Assembly: GCA_964016885.1 (NCBI GenBank)
Contig: OZ024743.1
Span: forward strand, 279,372,001 to 279,436,000
Reading direction: 5' to 3'
DNA length: 64,000 nt
Source: Eledone cirrhosa
Taxonomy: Eukaryota
The position numbers were made by a program, and so were the translations under genes. Under the pieces are notes generated by a model. That model was given only the letters and a program-made list of their open reading frames with translations. It ran no database searches and had not been told where the DNA came from. Positions 1,567 to 63,933 of this stretch are shown here, one piece after another. How positions within the stretch are numbered: the stretch's first letter is position 1; each line of letters begins with the position of its first letter.

Positions 1567-2335
1567 GAACACTGATGGGTTATATCCGTAGCACTAGAGC
1601 ACTAAATCCATGGGACGGGTGTGATAGAAGTAGTTCCACAACAGTCAATTCACCATTTCCGAAAACAATTGTTTCACCTTATTCGGATCATCAGGTCGGT
1701 TTAAATGAGTTTGTACGGAAAAGGAAAAAAAATTGTACGAATACGCATGTGCAGAAACAGTCACTTCCCAGGGGGCAGGTAACCCACATAGGATCGGAGC
1801 AGAGAGACAACTGAGGATACTCAGAATAAAAATAAATTATTCATGTTATTCAGTCCAGAAAATTATTGATTGTTAATGTTAGTCAATCTGGAGCATTGTA
1901 ATTACGTAATGGGTCTTTCCAGACGTGTGGATAATGCGAAAAAAGTTCATTGCTTGAATTTAGACAAGCACTATTATGCACATTTTCATGATATTGATTC
2001 TTTCATCAATGCACACGCTACAAGTCAGATTCCCGTTTGAGTATGGCTTTGACACTTAGTAATAACTTTCCATTGCATGGAGTAATCCACGCTAGTGTTC
2101 TTGAGGGAGCATACGGGGATCGCGAGCTTCTTGGACGATCGTTTTTCAGGGTAGCTGGAAGTCGACAGATGATTCAGAAAGCTTTCTTTAAACCGGCCGT
2201 CCACATACCTACATAGGATTTGAGACATCCTGTTGAATTGGTCGGTTAGAAGTGACCACAGCTTTGTAAATTACAGCGGGTGTGTTACATTGTTGTTGAA
2301 GGGGACACGATTCAGGCCTTCGACAAGAGCATCCT
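1565..2335 (-). mobile_element. 3' end of a Penelope-like element: Cys linker + GIY-YIG endonuclease remnant + HHR-bearing 3' UTR
   Basis: Minus strand reads CSCRRPESCPLQQQCNTPAVIYKAVVTSN, then KSYVGM, DGRFKESFLNHLST, DYSMQWKVITKC and CLNSSNELFSHYPH, with frameshifts. HHR downstream at 1659-1699; ends in (TA)n. Confidence 0.82.
1659..1699 (-). ncRNA. Minimal type I hammerhead ribozyme
   Basis: ccgac CTGATGA tcc gaataa ggt GAAA caattg TT ttcgg; palindromic stem III; one stem I mismatch. Confidence 0.75.
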
Positions 2336-6443: not shown

Positions 6444-6514
6444 TATTTTATCTGACGAAAACGCAAATGTCATCGCATGATGATATTTGTTTTTGAAATG
6501 CGCATAATAAAATA
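6444..6514 (+). ncRNA. Type I HHR with long stem II
   Basis: tattttat CTGACGA aaacgcaaatgtcatc gcat gatgatatttgttttt GAAA tgcgca TA ataaaata; 8-bp stem I. Confidence 0.88.
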
Positions 6515-45888: not shown

Positions 45889-46160
45889 AACAAGTAAGAC
45901 CCCGACGGCTGAGCTCAAGTCGTTTCGACGGCTAATTCTGGAATTAGCCGCCGAAACGGCTTGAGCTCAGCCGTCGGGGTCCTACTTGTTCCTATTACCC
46001 ACTCTACTACCCTAAGTATTGAGTACTTTGGTGCGTTATGGTCCACCTGATTTCCTTCGTTTCCGAGGTTGACTTTGCCTTTCATCCTTACGGGGTCGAT
46101 AAAATAAAGTACCAGTAATGCACTGGGTAATTTCTGGCCTTGTGCCTAAAGTAGAAACAG

Positions 46161-46419: not shown

Positions 46420-47791
46420 AGGGAGGGTCATATTGTTGTAATAATATTGCCAGAATTAATAATAGAACACACTCATTATTTGATTGGTTTTCGCTTCTGT
46501 ATCTTTTATATCAGTTAATTTAATTTATTCGGTTCTCAATGTTACCATTGACTGACCAACGGTCAAACATACAGATACGCTCTGGTATCTTTGGTTGTCG
46601 TGCCATGAGGTGGCTTTCCCTATCTTATGTCTAGTCCTATCTAAGCTATTCCATGATTCGCTCCTGTATAATGGGCAAATTCCTTTCATGTCCAGTTCTA
46701 TGAGGGTCTTATACTTCTCCGTGGCTCCTTCGTATACTCTGATTCTGTCTCTTTGGGTGTAGCCAGAGAACTGCATGCGGTTGATGAAGTGTTGGACGTG
46801 TCTTCCATTTCTGTTGGGTCGCACATGCGAGACACGTTCTTCATCATTCGTACCAAGTCTGCGATCAGAATATTAAACTTAGCACTACTGGACATTGCTG
46901 AGTTTTTGAGTATCAAGTATTTGGAGGCCATGGGTTTAACATAGTGTGAGTGGAGAATTTGGGCTCTCTCGTCTATAGTGTTAATCCAGAGTTCCGTGTC
47001 TAATACAGGTAGTCTATTGTTAGGGTATTTGGAAGAGTAGTCGATAGATACAGTTATACTCTGGTGTATGGAATAAGCTATCTGCTGGATGTTTTCCATT
47101 GTGCTACGTTCTAAATCAAACTTGTTAGTACTCTCTTGTGGGGATGTCCTTATTACTATATTGATGTCGTCTACGTAACGAGAGTACATGATGAGGTCTA
47201 TGGAGCTCTCATCAAGGATATCTTTGAGTCTCCTTTCCCAAAACACCATAAAAAGGTTGGCAACGTCACCAGCTATGCTGACGCCAATGGTTGCTCCCTC
47301 ATTTAGGGTGTAGATCTTCTCGTTGAATTTGAATATGTGGCCCTTTAGGGTAGTTTTAATATTAGCCCCTATTGCATGTGCGACCATTTTTCTTACCTGA
47401 TCATTGTTTTGGGGCGTCCGTATGGCTTTGGTCCACCCAATCCACCTTCCCATGGGATTCTTTTTTCCCATTAAGGTTATGGTGGGGGGGTCTACCTCTT
47501 ATGGGTCTACTGGGGCAGAAACGTCTAAGGTCATGGCTGTCTAGGTAGTCAGTGTCATAGGTAAATCTAAGCAGGAGGCCCAGTTCGTCTGTATCGACGT
47601 CGCAGAACTCCACCTCACTCTCACTGATCATCTCCACACATTTTTCCACAGCAAAATCAATGGTAATGGATGGGAGTAGTGACACCATGTCCATACTGCC
47701 TATTGTGCAGTTGGATAGGTTTTTGTTTTTGTTGCACTCACTGATTCTGCTGAGGAGGTCCTCTGTACTGTCAAAATCCTCGCAAAACTAA

Positions 47792-48366: not shown

Positions 48367-49109
48367 GTAAGGGTTGACGGACCCCGCATATTTATCAATG
48401 CCAGTACCGGTTGTATCACAGCGCACTCAATGGGCAATGTAAGATACATTACCAGAGTATACACATAGTTATTTGCCTCAACACAACACACGTGAAACGG
48501 GTACCTATAAGGTTCCCGGACTCCAGTTTCTGCAGCACTAATGCAGTAGTAAAGTGCACTGCACCATCTGCGTATATCATGCAACAATGCACAATCGGCT
48601 TATGCGGCTTCATTAGCGGGTATCGCCTAATCAATAACCAATCGATCAACATAATCCAAACACCGGCCCGTGCCGGTCATGACTGTTTGTGACAACCGAC
48701 ACGGTAAAGCGTTTAACCGGCAACCGATAGGACTCTATCTCTCAACTAGCCACTGATTTATAAATTTTACGTGGGGACGGGAAGCTAAAAAGAATCAAAC
48801 TATTAGTTCCTGTCAGAAGCTCTCAGCCGACGCATCTCACACACAAATTACCAAGGGGTGAAAAGATGGCTATTAGAAATAGCAGTTCACATTGATATAA
48901 AATAGAATGGTAGCATTTGGTTCATGTCTCCAAGCCCTATGGCTAGAGGAAAGCGATGGTAACAATGGTAATATATATATATTGATGATTTCTAAAGAAT
49001 GAAACAGTTCTAGTCCTTTAGAATCTCATCTATATTAAAACTTTTATACTCTGCAATGTATTGAGTACCTTACTTACTGTGGTTACCTCCGATTAAACCC
49101 GGAATAACG

Positions 49110-49137
<28 letters not shown>

Positions 49138-49140
<3 letters not shown>

Positions 49141-49579
49141 TTTTGTATTTATCGTTTTCGGTGCGCCCGGCCGACTAACTCACTCGATATGCAAATTAGG
49201 CTGCTCAGCCGTTAATATGCATGAGGAAAGTATATACTTTCATACGTTCAATCATCTGGCAGGAAGGTATACGATGCTGACGATAGCTAATAAGCTTGAA
49301 ACTAGTACATCGTTCCTGTGTCAGTGTTGAACAAAAAGGCGACGATGGTTACCTGAACACTGTACGGCGTAATACATCTGTTTACAAACAAACAAACCGA
49401 ACATTATAATAAATGTTCGGTAAACCCATACGTATATATATATGTGTGTACATGTATGTATATATATATACATACTACTGTACCTCGGTATACATATATG
49501 TATGTACGTATACATACATACTTGCATTTAGTTATCAGCCGTACTAAGAGTGAGAAATGAAATTTCGTTTCATTCTTTT

Positions 49580-49580
<1 letters not shown>
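49138..49580 (+). mobile_element. Approximately full monomer (~440 bp) of the HHR family also at 5477-6070
   Basis: Colinear with 5690-6070; starts and ends with the same TTCTTTT junction sequence; (TA)n flanks. Confidence 0.78.
49271..49313 (+). ncRNA. Type I HHR
   Basis: acgatg CTGACGA t agct aata agct t GAAA ctag TA catcgt. Confidence 0.9.
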
Positions 49581-51184: not shown

Positions 51185-51231
<47 letters not shown>

Positions 51232-51234
51232 TGA

Positions 51235-51283
51235 GATTCTACAGGACTAGAACTGTTTCATTCTTTAGAAATCATCAGGAATC
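51235..51283 (-). ncRNA. Type I HHR (family B)
   Basis: gattc CTGATGA tttc taaa gaat GAAA cag ttctagtc ctg TA gaatc. Confidence 0.88.
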
Positions 51284-51574
51284 TGGGTAGGGTATCAAAA
51301 AATAAGTATGGTATTTATAGGTCTCTTCAAGTGGTAGGAGAGGGTGGGGAGTGGGATGGGTGTAGGTCATTGGTTGATAGAAAAGGGAATTCATTAAAAG
51401 CTAATTCTACAAAGCTATAGTTTAAACTATAGCTTTGTAGAATTATAGTCCTGTAGAATCTCATCTATATTAAAACTTTTATACTCTGCAATGTATTAAG
51501 TACCTTACTTACTGTGGTTACCTCCGATTCAACCCGGAATAATGTATATATATATATATATATATATATAGTAA

Positions 51575-52324: not shown

Positions 52325-52371
<47 letters not shown>

Positions 52372-52659
52372 CAAATAACGAAACGAAATTAAATTTCGTT
52401 TCGCCTGTAACTCACTTTTGTATGACTGACGCTTAAACAATTAAGTCAAAGATGTACATCTACATATGCATACTGAAATACTAGTGTGTATATGAATACA
52501 CACACGTATACATATGTAGGTGTAACAAGTCTTTCACTGGTTGCTTTACTGTGAGCACCCAGCTATTCTGTATGTAAACACACAGACAAACCGGTTTTTA
52601 GAGTCATACTGGTTTTCGGGGGAACACCTTCCCTCTATTCTCCAGAAAGCCAGACAAGG

Positions 52660-52704
52660 AATATTGAACTAGTTTCATTGTTGTTACAACTCATCAGCAA
52701 TATT
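52660..52704 (-). ncRNA. Inverted copy of the 53110 HHR
   Basis: One substitution gives G-U at the base of stem II. Confidence 0.88.
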
Positions 52705-53109
52705 TACCTATCTACCGGCCCTTCTGGAGAATTGTAAAAGCACATATCGTTATATGCTTTTTCTATGAAAATTAGTAGTGGGCAGACTAATTTGCATAGA
52801 GTGTGAGTACGCACCGGTTCAGCGGAGACGATAAAAACAAATAACGAAACGAAATTAAATTTCGTTTCGCTTGTAACTCACTTTTGTATGACTGACGCTT
52901 AAACAATTAAGTCATACAAAAGTCATACAAAAGTGAGTTACAAGCGAAACGAAATTTAATTTCGTTTCGTTATTTGTTTTTATCGTCTCCGCTGAACCGG
53001 TGCGTACTCACACTCTATGCAAATTAGTCTGCCCACTACTAATTTTCATAGAAAAAGCATATAACGATATGTGCTTTTACAATTCTCCAGAAGGGCCGGT
53101 AGATAGGTA

Positions 53110-53154
53110 AATATTGCTGATGAGTTGTAACAACAACGAAACTAGTTCAATATT
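53110..53154 (+). ncRNA. Canonical type I HHR
   Basis: aatattg CTGATGA gttgt aaca acaac GAAA ctag TT caatatt; AACTAGTT palindrome. Confidence 0.92.
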
Positions 53155-53391
53155 CCTTGTCTGGCTTTCTGGAGAATAGAGGGAAGGTGTTCCCCCGAAA
53201 ACCAGTATGACTCTAAAAACCGGTTTGTCTGTGTGTTTACATACAGAATAGCTGGGTGCTCACAGTAAAGCAACCAGTGAAAGACTTGTTACACCTACAT
53301 ATGTATACGTGTGTGTATTCATATACACACTAGTATTTCAGTATGCATATGTAGATGTACATTTTTGACTTAATTGTATATATATATACAT

Positions 53392-53694
<303 letters not shown>

Positions 53695-54075: not shown

Positions 54076-54167
<92 letters not shown>

Positions 54168-54489
54168 CGAAGGAAGTGTGGTAAGGAACCAGATGAACCA
54201 TAACGAACCAAAGTACTCAATACTTACGGTAGTAGAGTGGGTAATAGGTCCAGAAATAGCCGTCAAACCGGCTTGAGCTCTGCCGTCGGGGTCATACTTG
54301 TTCCTATATATATATATATATAGGAAAATATTTCAAACCCCGACGGCAGAGCTCAAGCCATTTCGGCGGCTATTTCTGGACTCCCACCGTCGGGGTCTTG
54401 AACATTTTCCTATTACCCACTCTACTACCGTAAGTATTGAGTACTCTGGTGCGTTATGGTCCATCTGGCTCCTTACCTCACCTCCTTCG

Positions 54490-54544
<55 letters not shown>

Positions 54545-59600: not shown

Positions 59601-60376
59601 GCAAAAGTCTTGTCATGTAAGTTGTGCATCACAACTATTAACGCTAGGAGCTTTATGTTACGAAGCCGAAAATTGGTCTGCTATTTAGTAAGTCTGATAA
59701 ACAAAAAACAAAAAATGAAGGATGTCTCGAGAGGAGCAAGAAGGAGTGATAGTGAGATGGGCAAGGAGAAATTGGAATAAAGAGAAACGTGGAGAGGGGG
59801 AGGGAAGGAACAGAAAGAGAACAGGCGAGAAACAGATGAGATAGAGGAGCTCGCTATTAAAAACATAGCAGCTTCGCAAAAAGTGGCCTCAAGTAAGTCT
59901 TAATATATATATCAATACACAGTATGTCATCACCATACGAACATTCTACTTACGAACTTCCGCAGACACGAACAGTCTCACGAAGAAAAAAAATATGTTG
60001 TTTGAGTTTGAAATTCGGTTCTTTTGTGCCCTGTGTTCCTTCTTTTGCAGCATAAAAACAAGACGAAATCGTATATACGTTATGGGATTCCATTCTGCTT
60101 TCGCAGAATTGAAAAGTTACTTTTTATTGTCATTATTATATGTTATATATATATATTATATGTTATATATTTGAGGGCGGTGGATTGGCTGTATCAGTAG
60201 AGGGTTGGACGCCATGCTTTGCAGCAAAGAGTTACGGCGCTTTATGGTCTGAGTTCAAATGCCACCGAGGTTAACTTTGCCTTTCATCCTTAGGGAGTCG
60301 ATAAAATAAAGTACCAGTAAAAAACTGGGATAATTTCTCGCCTTGTGCAAAAAGTAGAAACACTTATATGTTATAT

Positions 60377-60570
60377 AGGGCCGGAGAATTGGCAGTATCG
60401 GTAGAGAGTTGGACGCCATGCTTTCCAGCATAGTTACATCTCTTTACAGTCTGAGTTCAAATCCCGCCGAGGTTAACTTTGCCTTCATCCTTACAGGGTC
60501 GATAAAATAAAGTACCAGTAATGTACTGGGTTATTGCTGGCCTTGTGCCAAAAGTAGAAACAATTATTAT
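60377..60570 (+). mobile_element. tRNA-derived SINE, full length; tandem partner at 60174-60365
   Basis: A box TGGCAGTATCGG, B box GAGTTCAAATCC, core GCCTTTCATCCTTACGGGGTCGATAAAATAAAGTACCAG, (ATT)n tail. Confidence 0.88.
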
Positions 60571-63397: not shown

Positions 63398-63515
<118 letters not shown>

Positions 63516-63933
63516 GGAACAAGTATGACCCCGACGGCAGAGCTCAAGCCGTTTCGACGTCTAATTCTGGACAATACGCGTCGAGAATTAGCCGTCGAAA
63601 CGGCTTGAGCTCTGCCGTCGGGGTCATACTTGTTCCTATTACCCACTCTACTACCCTAAGTATTGAGTACTTTGGTGCGTTATGGTCCATCTGGTTCCTT
63701 ACCACATTTCACTCATTATATAAATATATATATATTTATATATATATATATATATATATATCCATATATATATATATGAATATATACATATATATATATA
63801 TATATGTGAATATAGACATAGAATATTCGAAAATATTCTGTATGTTTATAATAAACATTTTGAAGACCTAATCGCTATAGAATAGAATACGTCACGTATT
63901 ACAATTAGATTCTCGATAAAAGCAAGGGAAGTA

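Follow-up and report, generated by a model that had tools for sequence, protein, structure and literature searches.

Structure of the locus

A palindromic insertion with head-to-head arms was recognised by sequence inspection and repeat search in a (TA)n tract at 52366..53378 of the window (the whole 64-kb stretch of DNA that was analysed). The repeat search returned an 84-nt direct repeat (52365-52448 and 52831-52914, one difference), which sets the period at 466 nt; the original prediction had identified the tandem repeat correctly but gave its length as 465. We defined the unit as the reverse complement of 52366-52831 and numbered its positions 1 to 466. The features of the locus are as follows:

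52327..52365, no strand: (TA)n target tract forming the left flank (from the sequence)
52366..52914, minus strand: left arm, made of positions 384-466 and then one complete unit of 466 nt, with the 'long' outer end (position 466) at 52366
52366..52433, minus strand: 68-nt 'tail', positions 399-466, present at the left outer end only
52660..52704, minus strand: left-arm type I hammerhead, base 17 at 52667, closing pair of helix II now G-U
52832..52914, minus strand: second copy of positions 384-466 (the 84-nt direct repeat)
52909..52934, no strand: inversion junction, where the two arms meet at their 5'-truncated ends; 11 nt are locally duplicated
52921..53377, plus strand: right arm, positions 405-466 followed by 1-395; its outer end is the 'short' end
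53017..53024, plus strand: octamer-like motif, shared with the sister family, some 100 nt upstream of the ribozyme
53110..53154, plus strand: right-arm type I hammerhead (motif scan)
53110-53116 with 53148-53154, plus strand: helix I of the right-arm hammerhead; 53124-53137: its helix II
53141-53146, plus strand: palindromic helix III of the right-arm hammerhead; 53147: its base 17 (U)
53378..53388, no strand: short (TA)n tract as right flank; beyond it lies an unrelated small repeat element

The left arm (52366-52914, minus strand) is 549 nt long and comprises 1.18 units, in agreement with the 1.2 units estimated originally, and the right arm (52921-53377) is slightly shorter than one unit. 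In the repeat search the inverted arms (52434-52893 versus 52921-53380) were 99% complementary; they differ at two internal sites, 53137 and 53363, and at the terminal base, in line with the two to three differences noted originally. The copy is therefore young, as proposed, but not among the youngest, since other loci show no difference over 4-9 kb. Position 466 is followed by position 1 without a gap in both arms (52832/52831 on the left, 52982/52983 on the right), so that the right arm indeed runs from the terminal sequence into the start of the next unit. The 68-nt tail (52366..52433) contains a perfect hairpin at unit positions 431-455. The GC content of the surrounding 2 kb is 34%. In agreement with the predicted lack of an open reading frame, ATG-started frames reach at most 24 aa in a tripled unit and no frame in the unit exceeds 60 codons.

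Perfect long palindromes and tandem arrays are shapes typical of assembly or amplification artefacts, and the unit counts of the longest arrays come from the assembly only. We compared contigs from six sequencing runs, of which X5 and X6, having a low share, were left out of the evidence. One contig of run X3 crosses the inversion junction with 64 of 65 bases matching, i.e. the locus has read support with a single difference. Moreover, the same fixed, asymmetric ends recur at thousands of TA sites and the arms carry arm-specific substitutions, which makes an artefact extremely improbable.

The hammerhead motif

Each arm contains a single type I hammerhead according to the motif scan, its helix I being 7 bp and its helix II 5 bp long. 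Helix III is a bare 6-nt palindrome, position 17 is a U and GUU is the cleavage triplet. Through a C-to-T change, the left copy has G-U in place of the G10.1-C11.1 pair. The prediction of one hammerhead per unit thus holds, but owing to the GUU triplet, the bare palindromic helix III and the left G-U pair the motif is not fully canonical. In the right arm the predicted cleavage site lies between 53147 and 53148, corresponding to unit position 165/166 and to the cleavage position named in the original prediction (53148). At the window locus this site is traversed just once per arm.

The hammerhead had no match at the gathering threshold in an Rfam scan of the window, and the isolated ribozyme folds no better than shuffled sequences (z -1.0). 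The circular monomer folds with -153 kcal/mol (z -10.7 versus 40 shuffles) and 69% of its bases paired. We accept the hammerhead as real because of its core motif and because of compensatory helix changes in a sister family (see below). Across subfamilies the ribozyme is conserved, with 1 of 47 sites variable versus 24 of 317 elsewhere, a difference that is explained in part by sample selection. GUU is a slow cleavage triplet. The accessible text of PMC11875169 gives no rate for it, and a palindromic helix III of this kind needs a second ribozyme copy to cleave, as described in PMC4209133. The combination of GUU with a 3-bp palindromic helix III would predict weak, dimer-dependent self-cleavage.

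In both families, and in more distant relatives too, the hammerhead is preceded at approximately 90-100 nt by an octamer-like motif (window 53017-53024; L042:5366-5510; L128:588-750). A snRNA-type promoter, for which newt satellite 2 is a precedent, was considered as an explanation. Five host U2 genes have no octamer in the 400 nt preceding them, and an alignment with host U2 upstream regions did not score above shuffles, leaving the idea unsupported. The host carries about 40 U2 snRNA genes in a tandem array with 2.2-kb spacing at G000:C3:307349256-307453739.

A large family and its sister

A 30-nt ribozyme core has 5,201 exact matches in the 3.0-Gb genome, compared with none for the reversed control. 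Exact patterns further returned 2,045 long ends (position 466) followed by TA genome-wide, 817 short ends near position 393-398 followed by TA on the forward strand (the reverse-strand count of 1,591 takes in overlapping repeats) and 1,429 unit junctions of one sequence variant. These counts, which supply the genomic copy number left open in the original prediction, imply at least about 2,000 insertions. A DNA similarity search, in which 40 of 804 candidates were scored, yielded at least 177 matches, many of them head to tail. Across loci the unit period is 463-468 nt and arrays reach about 31 units. When a family profile built from 30 stretches was run against the fetched DNA, all of its matches were non-coding relatives.

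A sister family can be aligned with the unit over its full length (score 216 versus a shuffle maximum of 37). It keeps the core and helix III, and its helices I and II are altered in a compensating fashion. A relaxed pattern for the sister family had 29,496 matches genome-wide, and all of the 100 matches listed were of the sister type; its copies show both kinds of end when inspected by eye. One sister-family copy is located at window 49150-49580 (plus strand), with a hammerhead at 49277 and a GUA triplet; units of the sister family measure 420-500 nt.

With one hammerhead per unit, head-to-tail dimers to multimers, no coding capacity, low GC content and a self-paired monomer, the family displays the features of non-LTR retrozymes. 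Judged by its sequence, it is a large, young, non-autonomous non-LTR retrozyme. The element class is already known, and the window copy is a real young member and an ordinary one of its family. The original prediction of a retrozyme-type element, reverse-transcribed from a template longer than one unit, is borne out; it lacked the rule for the two ends and the link to PLEs described in the following.

Paired ends in TA tracts

The mapped sample comprises 62 distinct loci. Of these, 35 were selected because they resemble the window, and the other 27 were taken in order along a chromosome wherever the ribozyme matched exactly; 13 overlapping loci were left out and 4 adjacent stretches merged into 2. 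Sampling by unit similarity or exact ribozyme match favours intact, longer copies. Two arms were present in 44 of the 62 loci, the 5'-truncated ends meeting centrally and both 3' ends facing outward. One long and one short outer end were found in 39 of these 44, two short ends in one and a damaged end in four. In the 39 loci the short end lies at unit position 388-400 (mostly about 393-398) and the long end at 463-466. The chromosome-ordered subset gave long plus short in 16 of 18 loci. We also listed by position the 87 long and 70 short ends in the first 120 Mb of one chromosome, a list that shares loci with the 62-locus sample: of 36 facing end pairs, 34 were long plus short, one long plus long and one short plus short, when about 49% mixed pairs would be expected if ends were independent. 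On fetching, both exceptions proved to be genuine same-type insertions, and one counted long plus short pair consisted of two separate long plus short insertions. (TA)n flanks the insertions, both in the mapped loci and at the 2,045 long ends abutting TA.

All three parts of the published PLE signature (PMC8557442, PMC3846280) are seen in the family: the truncated copy in inverted orientation, here 5'-truncated, the tail confined to one end, and the microsatellite target, here (TA)n. The tail, at 68-73 nt, is longer than published tails. According to PMC11167929, the protein of an anole PLE, a predicted dimer, cleaves both strands in vitro and extends each of them, initiating at two adjacent internal sites with the tail between them. 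The two fixed insertion ends match these two RT start sites, identifying the 466/1 junction as the long start site, and the element almost certainly works like a PLE-mobilised one.

This assignment alters the meaning of the read-through from 466 to 1, which had been taken as the footprint of a circular RNA or a tandem transcript. A circle made by the hammerhead would close at 165/166, some 300 nt away from the tail start site, so the window locus alone shows no circle. Likewise, a single crossing of the cleavage site per arm is what any uncleaved transcript of a 1.2-unit parent allows.

Fold-back copying could account for the inversion in 30 of 39 loci. In the other 9 neither arm contains the other, which makes it impossible there and rules it out as the general cause. 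Since arm lengths are also uncorrelated (rho 0.15), two cDNAs are needed. Two loci deviate in structure. At L051:2447-7211 the arms of one insertion are 4.8 kb apart, probably owing to a later insertion between them, and L040:2043-3582 is a mosaic with two subfamily haplotypes within units and two short ends, pointing to template switching or gene conversion.

Candidate enzyme partners

An RT fragment (46698-47787, minus strand) is located in the window within a broken, 5'-truncated copy of a Neptune-like PLE (46520-47787, minus strand). This family has 26,784 candidate places in the genome, open frames of more than 1,000 codons with an asparagine-rich insert, and a hammerhead of its own. Its short and long ends are 43-55 nt apart and lie in TA; like those of the anole element, they fall within the opening codons of the ORF. 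By motif comparison, the linker and endonuclease of the family agree with the Neptune type as set out in PMC8557442. In Pfam the window RT fragment matched RVT_1 below the cut-off, and the Neptune-like frame was assigned to no family. A Hydra-type family, with 73,858 candidate places and repeated 713-codon frames, is very young (L112-L136) and likewise has short and long ends in TA, its tail of about 86 nt being over twice the published length. Both coding families are young. A separate Hydra-type PLE endonuclease fragment lies at window 2055-2192 (minus strand).

As parents of the unit these families were rejected. The 3' region of the Neptune-like family scored 130 versus a shuffle mean of 127, the Hydra-like family showed no match beyond TA-rich noise, and among six other Hydra-like fragments one reached a score of 42 versus a shuffle maximum of 34.5, in TA/TG-rich sequence. 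No coding PLE homologous to the unit was present in the DNA fetched, from a genome that holds many more PLE families. We infer the enzyme source from the insertion signature.

The coding PLEs of the same genome share the architecture of the window family and carry hammerheads, and retrozymes are held to derive from the terminal repeats (pLTRs) of PLEs in a 2026 preprint (10.64898/2026.07.22.740005). The unit could accordingly be the pLTR of a longer coding PLE of which truncated copies were sampled. We consider this very improbable: what lies upstream of the unit in the mapped loci is another unit, the inversion junction or unrelated flank, no RT plus GIY-YIG endonuclease ORF is joined to the unit in any of them, the unit is non-coding at the 60-codon level given above, and it has no homology to the termini of the fetched Neptune-like or Hydra-like families. 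None of the 62 distinct loci showed the situation named as fatal to the original prediction, a unit that ends a longer coding PLE. An ancestral origin of the unit from a pLTR is likely.

Template of the insertions

The case for a circular template comes from the other loci, with their identical multi-unit arms, private variants, insertion-aged units and clean cleavage site. Among 207 units, divergence was 0.36% within loci versus 3.7% between loci. In 12 of 31 loci with at least four pieces, a variant was fixed in all units that is the majority base in no other locus, and in 9 of these 12 the private fixed variants span both arms. Fixation in all units indicates a bottleneck of one unit, followed by amplification. 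The extent of amplification is illustrated by a 9.26-kb locus with 7+13 units (20 pieces) and a single edge mismatch, and by another with 9 identical pieces.

A bottleneck of one unit and uniform multimers would also arise, with no ligation, if a single linear monomer or 1.2-mer were re-entered by precise strand transfer or template jumping in a telomerase-like manner, leaving a circle-like footprint without a covalent circle. The RTs of PLEs are the sister group of those of telomerase, and Chlamys relatives lacking hammerheads are multimeric as well, according to PMC8557442. Jumps from end to end are expected to leave errors at the seam. However, 4 of 88 5' breaks fell at the cleavage site, where 4.0 were expected, and changes were not in excess there either (2 of 1,926 versus 260 of 72,819 bases). 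These values rule out that the usual template is simply a cleaved linear monomer, and they argue against sloppy end-to-end jumps; re-entry through a long terminal redundancy would be seamless. Conservation of the ribozyme across subfamilies and in the sister family speaks against re-entry, as does the occurrence in vivo of animal retrozymes of similar size as circles (PMC7229834). We therefore judge it distinctly unlikely.

A further explanation is that a linear, uncleaved tandem transcript serves as the template of the PLE, that long uniform arrays arise by duplication at the DNA level, and that the ribozyme is a passenger or only trims transcripts. Absent breaks at the cleavage site fit uncleaved RNA equally well, unprocessed RNA was the dominant template in vitro (PMC11167929), and expansion by unequal crossover is favoured in the 2026 preprint (10.64898/2026.07.22.740005). 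Duplication after insertion should make units of the same arm more alike than units of opposite arms, and a simple simulation of it gave a ratio of same-arm to cross-arm divergence of 0.50-0.62. Over 44 loci the observed values were 0.62% and 0.71% (p 0.43), a ratio of 0.87 that exceeds the simulated range; about 60 indel-prone columns, including the period-3 variant described below, were skipped in this test. In the 30 loci with at least four units, same-arm divergence (0.54%) was below cross-arm divergence (0.72%, p 0.04), in the direction expected from duplication, much of the gap coming from the mosaic locus L040. Variants confined to a single unit outnumbered shared ones (160 versus 43 of 203), with no shared variant in 19 of 30 multi-unit loci and at least one in the other 11. 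The number of units does not rise with insertion age (rho -0.20), and loci with zero or near-zero divergence already carry 8-20 units. The divergence pattern together with the predominance of single-unit variants indicates that most units date from the insertion itself. With a linear template, moreover, no arm could exceed its source in length, and a new variant could not become fixed throughout the units of both arms. On balance this explanation appears unlikely, yet one of its elements is real: the shared variants and the 2-, 3- and 4-unit periodicities of the longest arrays fit duplication at the DNA level, and the older, very long arrays have expanded further in this way.

A covalent monomer circle is the reading that fits the unit data best, if not the unique one. 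Oligomeric circles were considered as the source of the multi-unit periodicity and rejected for L031 and L070, where the repeat breakpoints lie off the cleavage site. The array of L032 also shows multi-unit periodicity. In L076:2338-7606, an otherwise uniform insertion of 23 units, one arm carries a single variant with period 3 over nine units, from either a trimer template or DNA duplication.

Proposed mechanism

Taken together, we interpret the locus as a non-LTR retrozyme insertion, likely mobilised in trans by a PLE that likely copied a one-unit circular RNA from both ends of a (TA)n cut; on the sequence evidence we think this interpretation probable, and the template was probably a circle made by the ribozyme. 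A locus with at least two units would be transcribed, paired hammerheads would cut at 165/166, and the 466-nt monomer would be ligated to a circle. A dimer of the PLE protein would then bind the circle and nick both strands of a TA tract, and its two RT subunits would start at the two fixed sites about 70 nt apart, one at each. Each RT may run round the circle to a variable extent, covering anything between a fraction of a unit and more than 10 units. Joining of the two cDNA ends, frequently at a few bases common to both, would then produce the palindrome.

The most specific form of this proposal is double rolling-circle reverse transcription, in which an asymmetric PLE dimer would copy one 466-nt circle from two fixed starts on opposite strands of a single TA cut for 10 or more rounds. 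We advance it tentatively, as a possibility that falls short of being probable. If it is correct, the 'satellite' arrays of animal retrozymes would be full-length from the moment of insertion instead of growing by crossover, and a single reaction would account for the tail, the inversion and the tandem arrangement of PLEs. For the anole PLE in vitro, PMC11167929 reports that ribozyme cleavage is dispensable, that unprocessed RNA is the main template and that no reads end at the site. These findings count against a circular template, as do the slow GUU triplet and the multimers of Chlamys elements, whose clade has few canonical hammerheads (PMC8557442).

The step from circle to tandem cDNA was already proposed in PMC4209133 and PMC7229834, the latter naming PLEs as likely helpers. 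The circle model is thus not new, and the genomic footprint supporting it is what is added here. In the literature searched (open papers for the most part, in their main texts) no paper was found that describes retrozyme arrays as PLE-type insertions having two arms and paired ends. The role of the hammerhead in PLEs and the use of retrozyme circles as transposition templates are treated as open questions in the accessible parts of PMC4209133, PMC7229834, PMC8557442 and PMC11167929. The family represents a large and very young natural data set on them, a retrozyme with the full PLE insertion signature whose multimers are apparently as old as their insertions. With a candidate template of 466 nt, two start sites that have been mapped and two candidate intact enzyme families in the same genome, it allows circular and linear templates to be tested directly against each other.

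Comparison with known elements

The animal non-LTR retrozymes of Cervera and de la Pena 2020 (PMC7229834) and of the 2026 preprint by Li, Clavereau and Pollet (10.64898/2026.07.22.740005) have in common with the window family non-coding units of a few hundred bases, each with a type I hammerhead with palindromic helix III, low GC content, strong self-pairing, thousands of copies from monomer to multimer and co-occurrence with PLEs. They are described as tandem arrays, whereas the window family consists of dispersed two-armed insertions with fixed ends; the word 'inverted' is absent from the accessible text of PMC7229834, and ends, inversions and tails are not given in that of 10.64898/2026.07.22.740005. 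The latter connects animal retrozymes with the termini of PLEs and suggests that they expand by unequal crossover. With 465-468 nt, the unit lies at the upper edge of the 150-450 bp range in PMC7229834. The GUU triplet sets the window family, known from DNA alone, apart from the animal retrozymes described in these sources.

EN+ PLEs (Penelope/Poseidon, Neptune, Hydra) share partial tandems, an inverted 5'-truncated copy, a one-end tail, (TA)n targeting, a hammerhead upstream of the ends and two RT start sites flanking the tail (PMC8557442, PMC3846280, PMC11167929, PMC4209133). In contrast to the window family they have an ORF, and their published tail measures 30-40 nt as against 68-73 nt. 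The tail is described as 'often' or 'optionally' one-ended, while the pairing of long and short ends in the window family is near-strict (34 of 36). Self-priming has been proposed for the inversion of PLEs (PMC3846280), to which the 9 of 39 loci that do not fit fold-back copying are at odds.

The non-autonomous Chlamys elements, e.g. MRC1 (PMC8557442), are similarly PLE derivatives with pLTRs, head-to-tail multicopy structure and recent activity. They belong to a green-algal clade mostly devoid of canonical hammerheads and have 3' ends like those of their autonomous partners; for the window family such a partner was not found. Plant LTR retrozymes (PMC4918200) are also non-autonomous and hammerhead-bearing with a circular RNA intermediate, which for the window family is inferred. 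Their type III hammerheads in LTRs, Gypsy-type signals and 4-bp target duplications were not seen in the window family.

Other elements in the window

About ten type I hammerhead-like motifs are scattered over the 64 kb surrounding the locus, those of other families lying at 6452, 22146, 49861 and 50147. Small hammerhead-bearing elements are present at 53454-53606, 51212-51470, 48983-49135 and 63968, and one of them, to the right of the locus, is a palindrome with 74-nt arms. A core related to these small elements occurs elsewhere in a two-armed array with a 310-nt period (L033:7897-9331). A further palindromic element in (TA)n, with 133-nt arms and no ribozyme seen in it, is located at 54116-54541 and recurs near 45890-46050 and 63500-63700. 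Finally, at 60155-60567 a 202-nt unit is present twice in tandem, the two copies being 83% alike.
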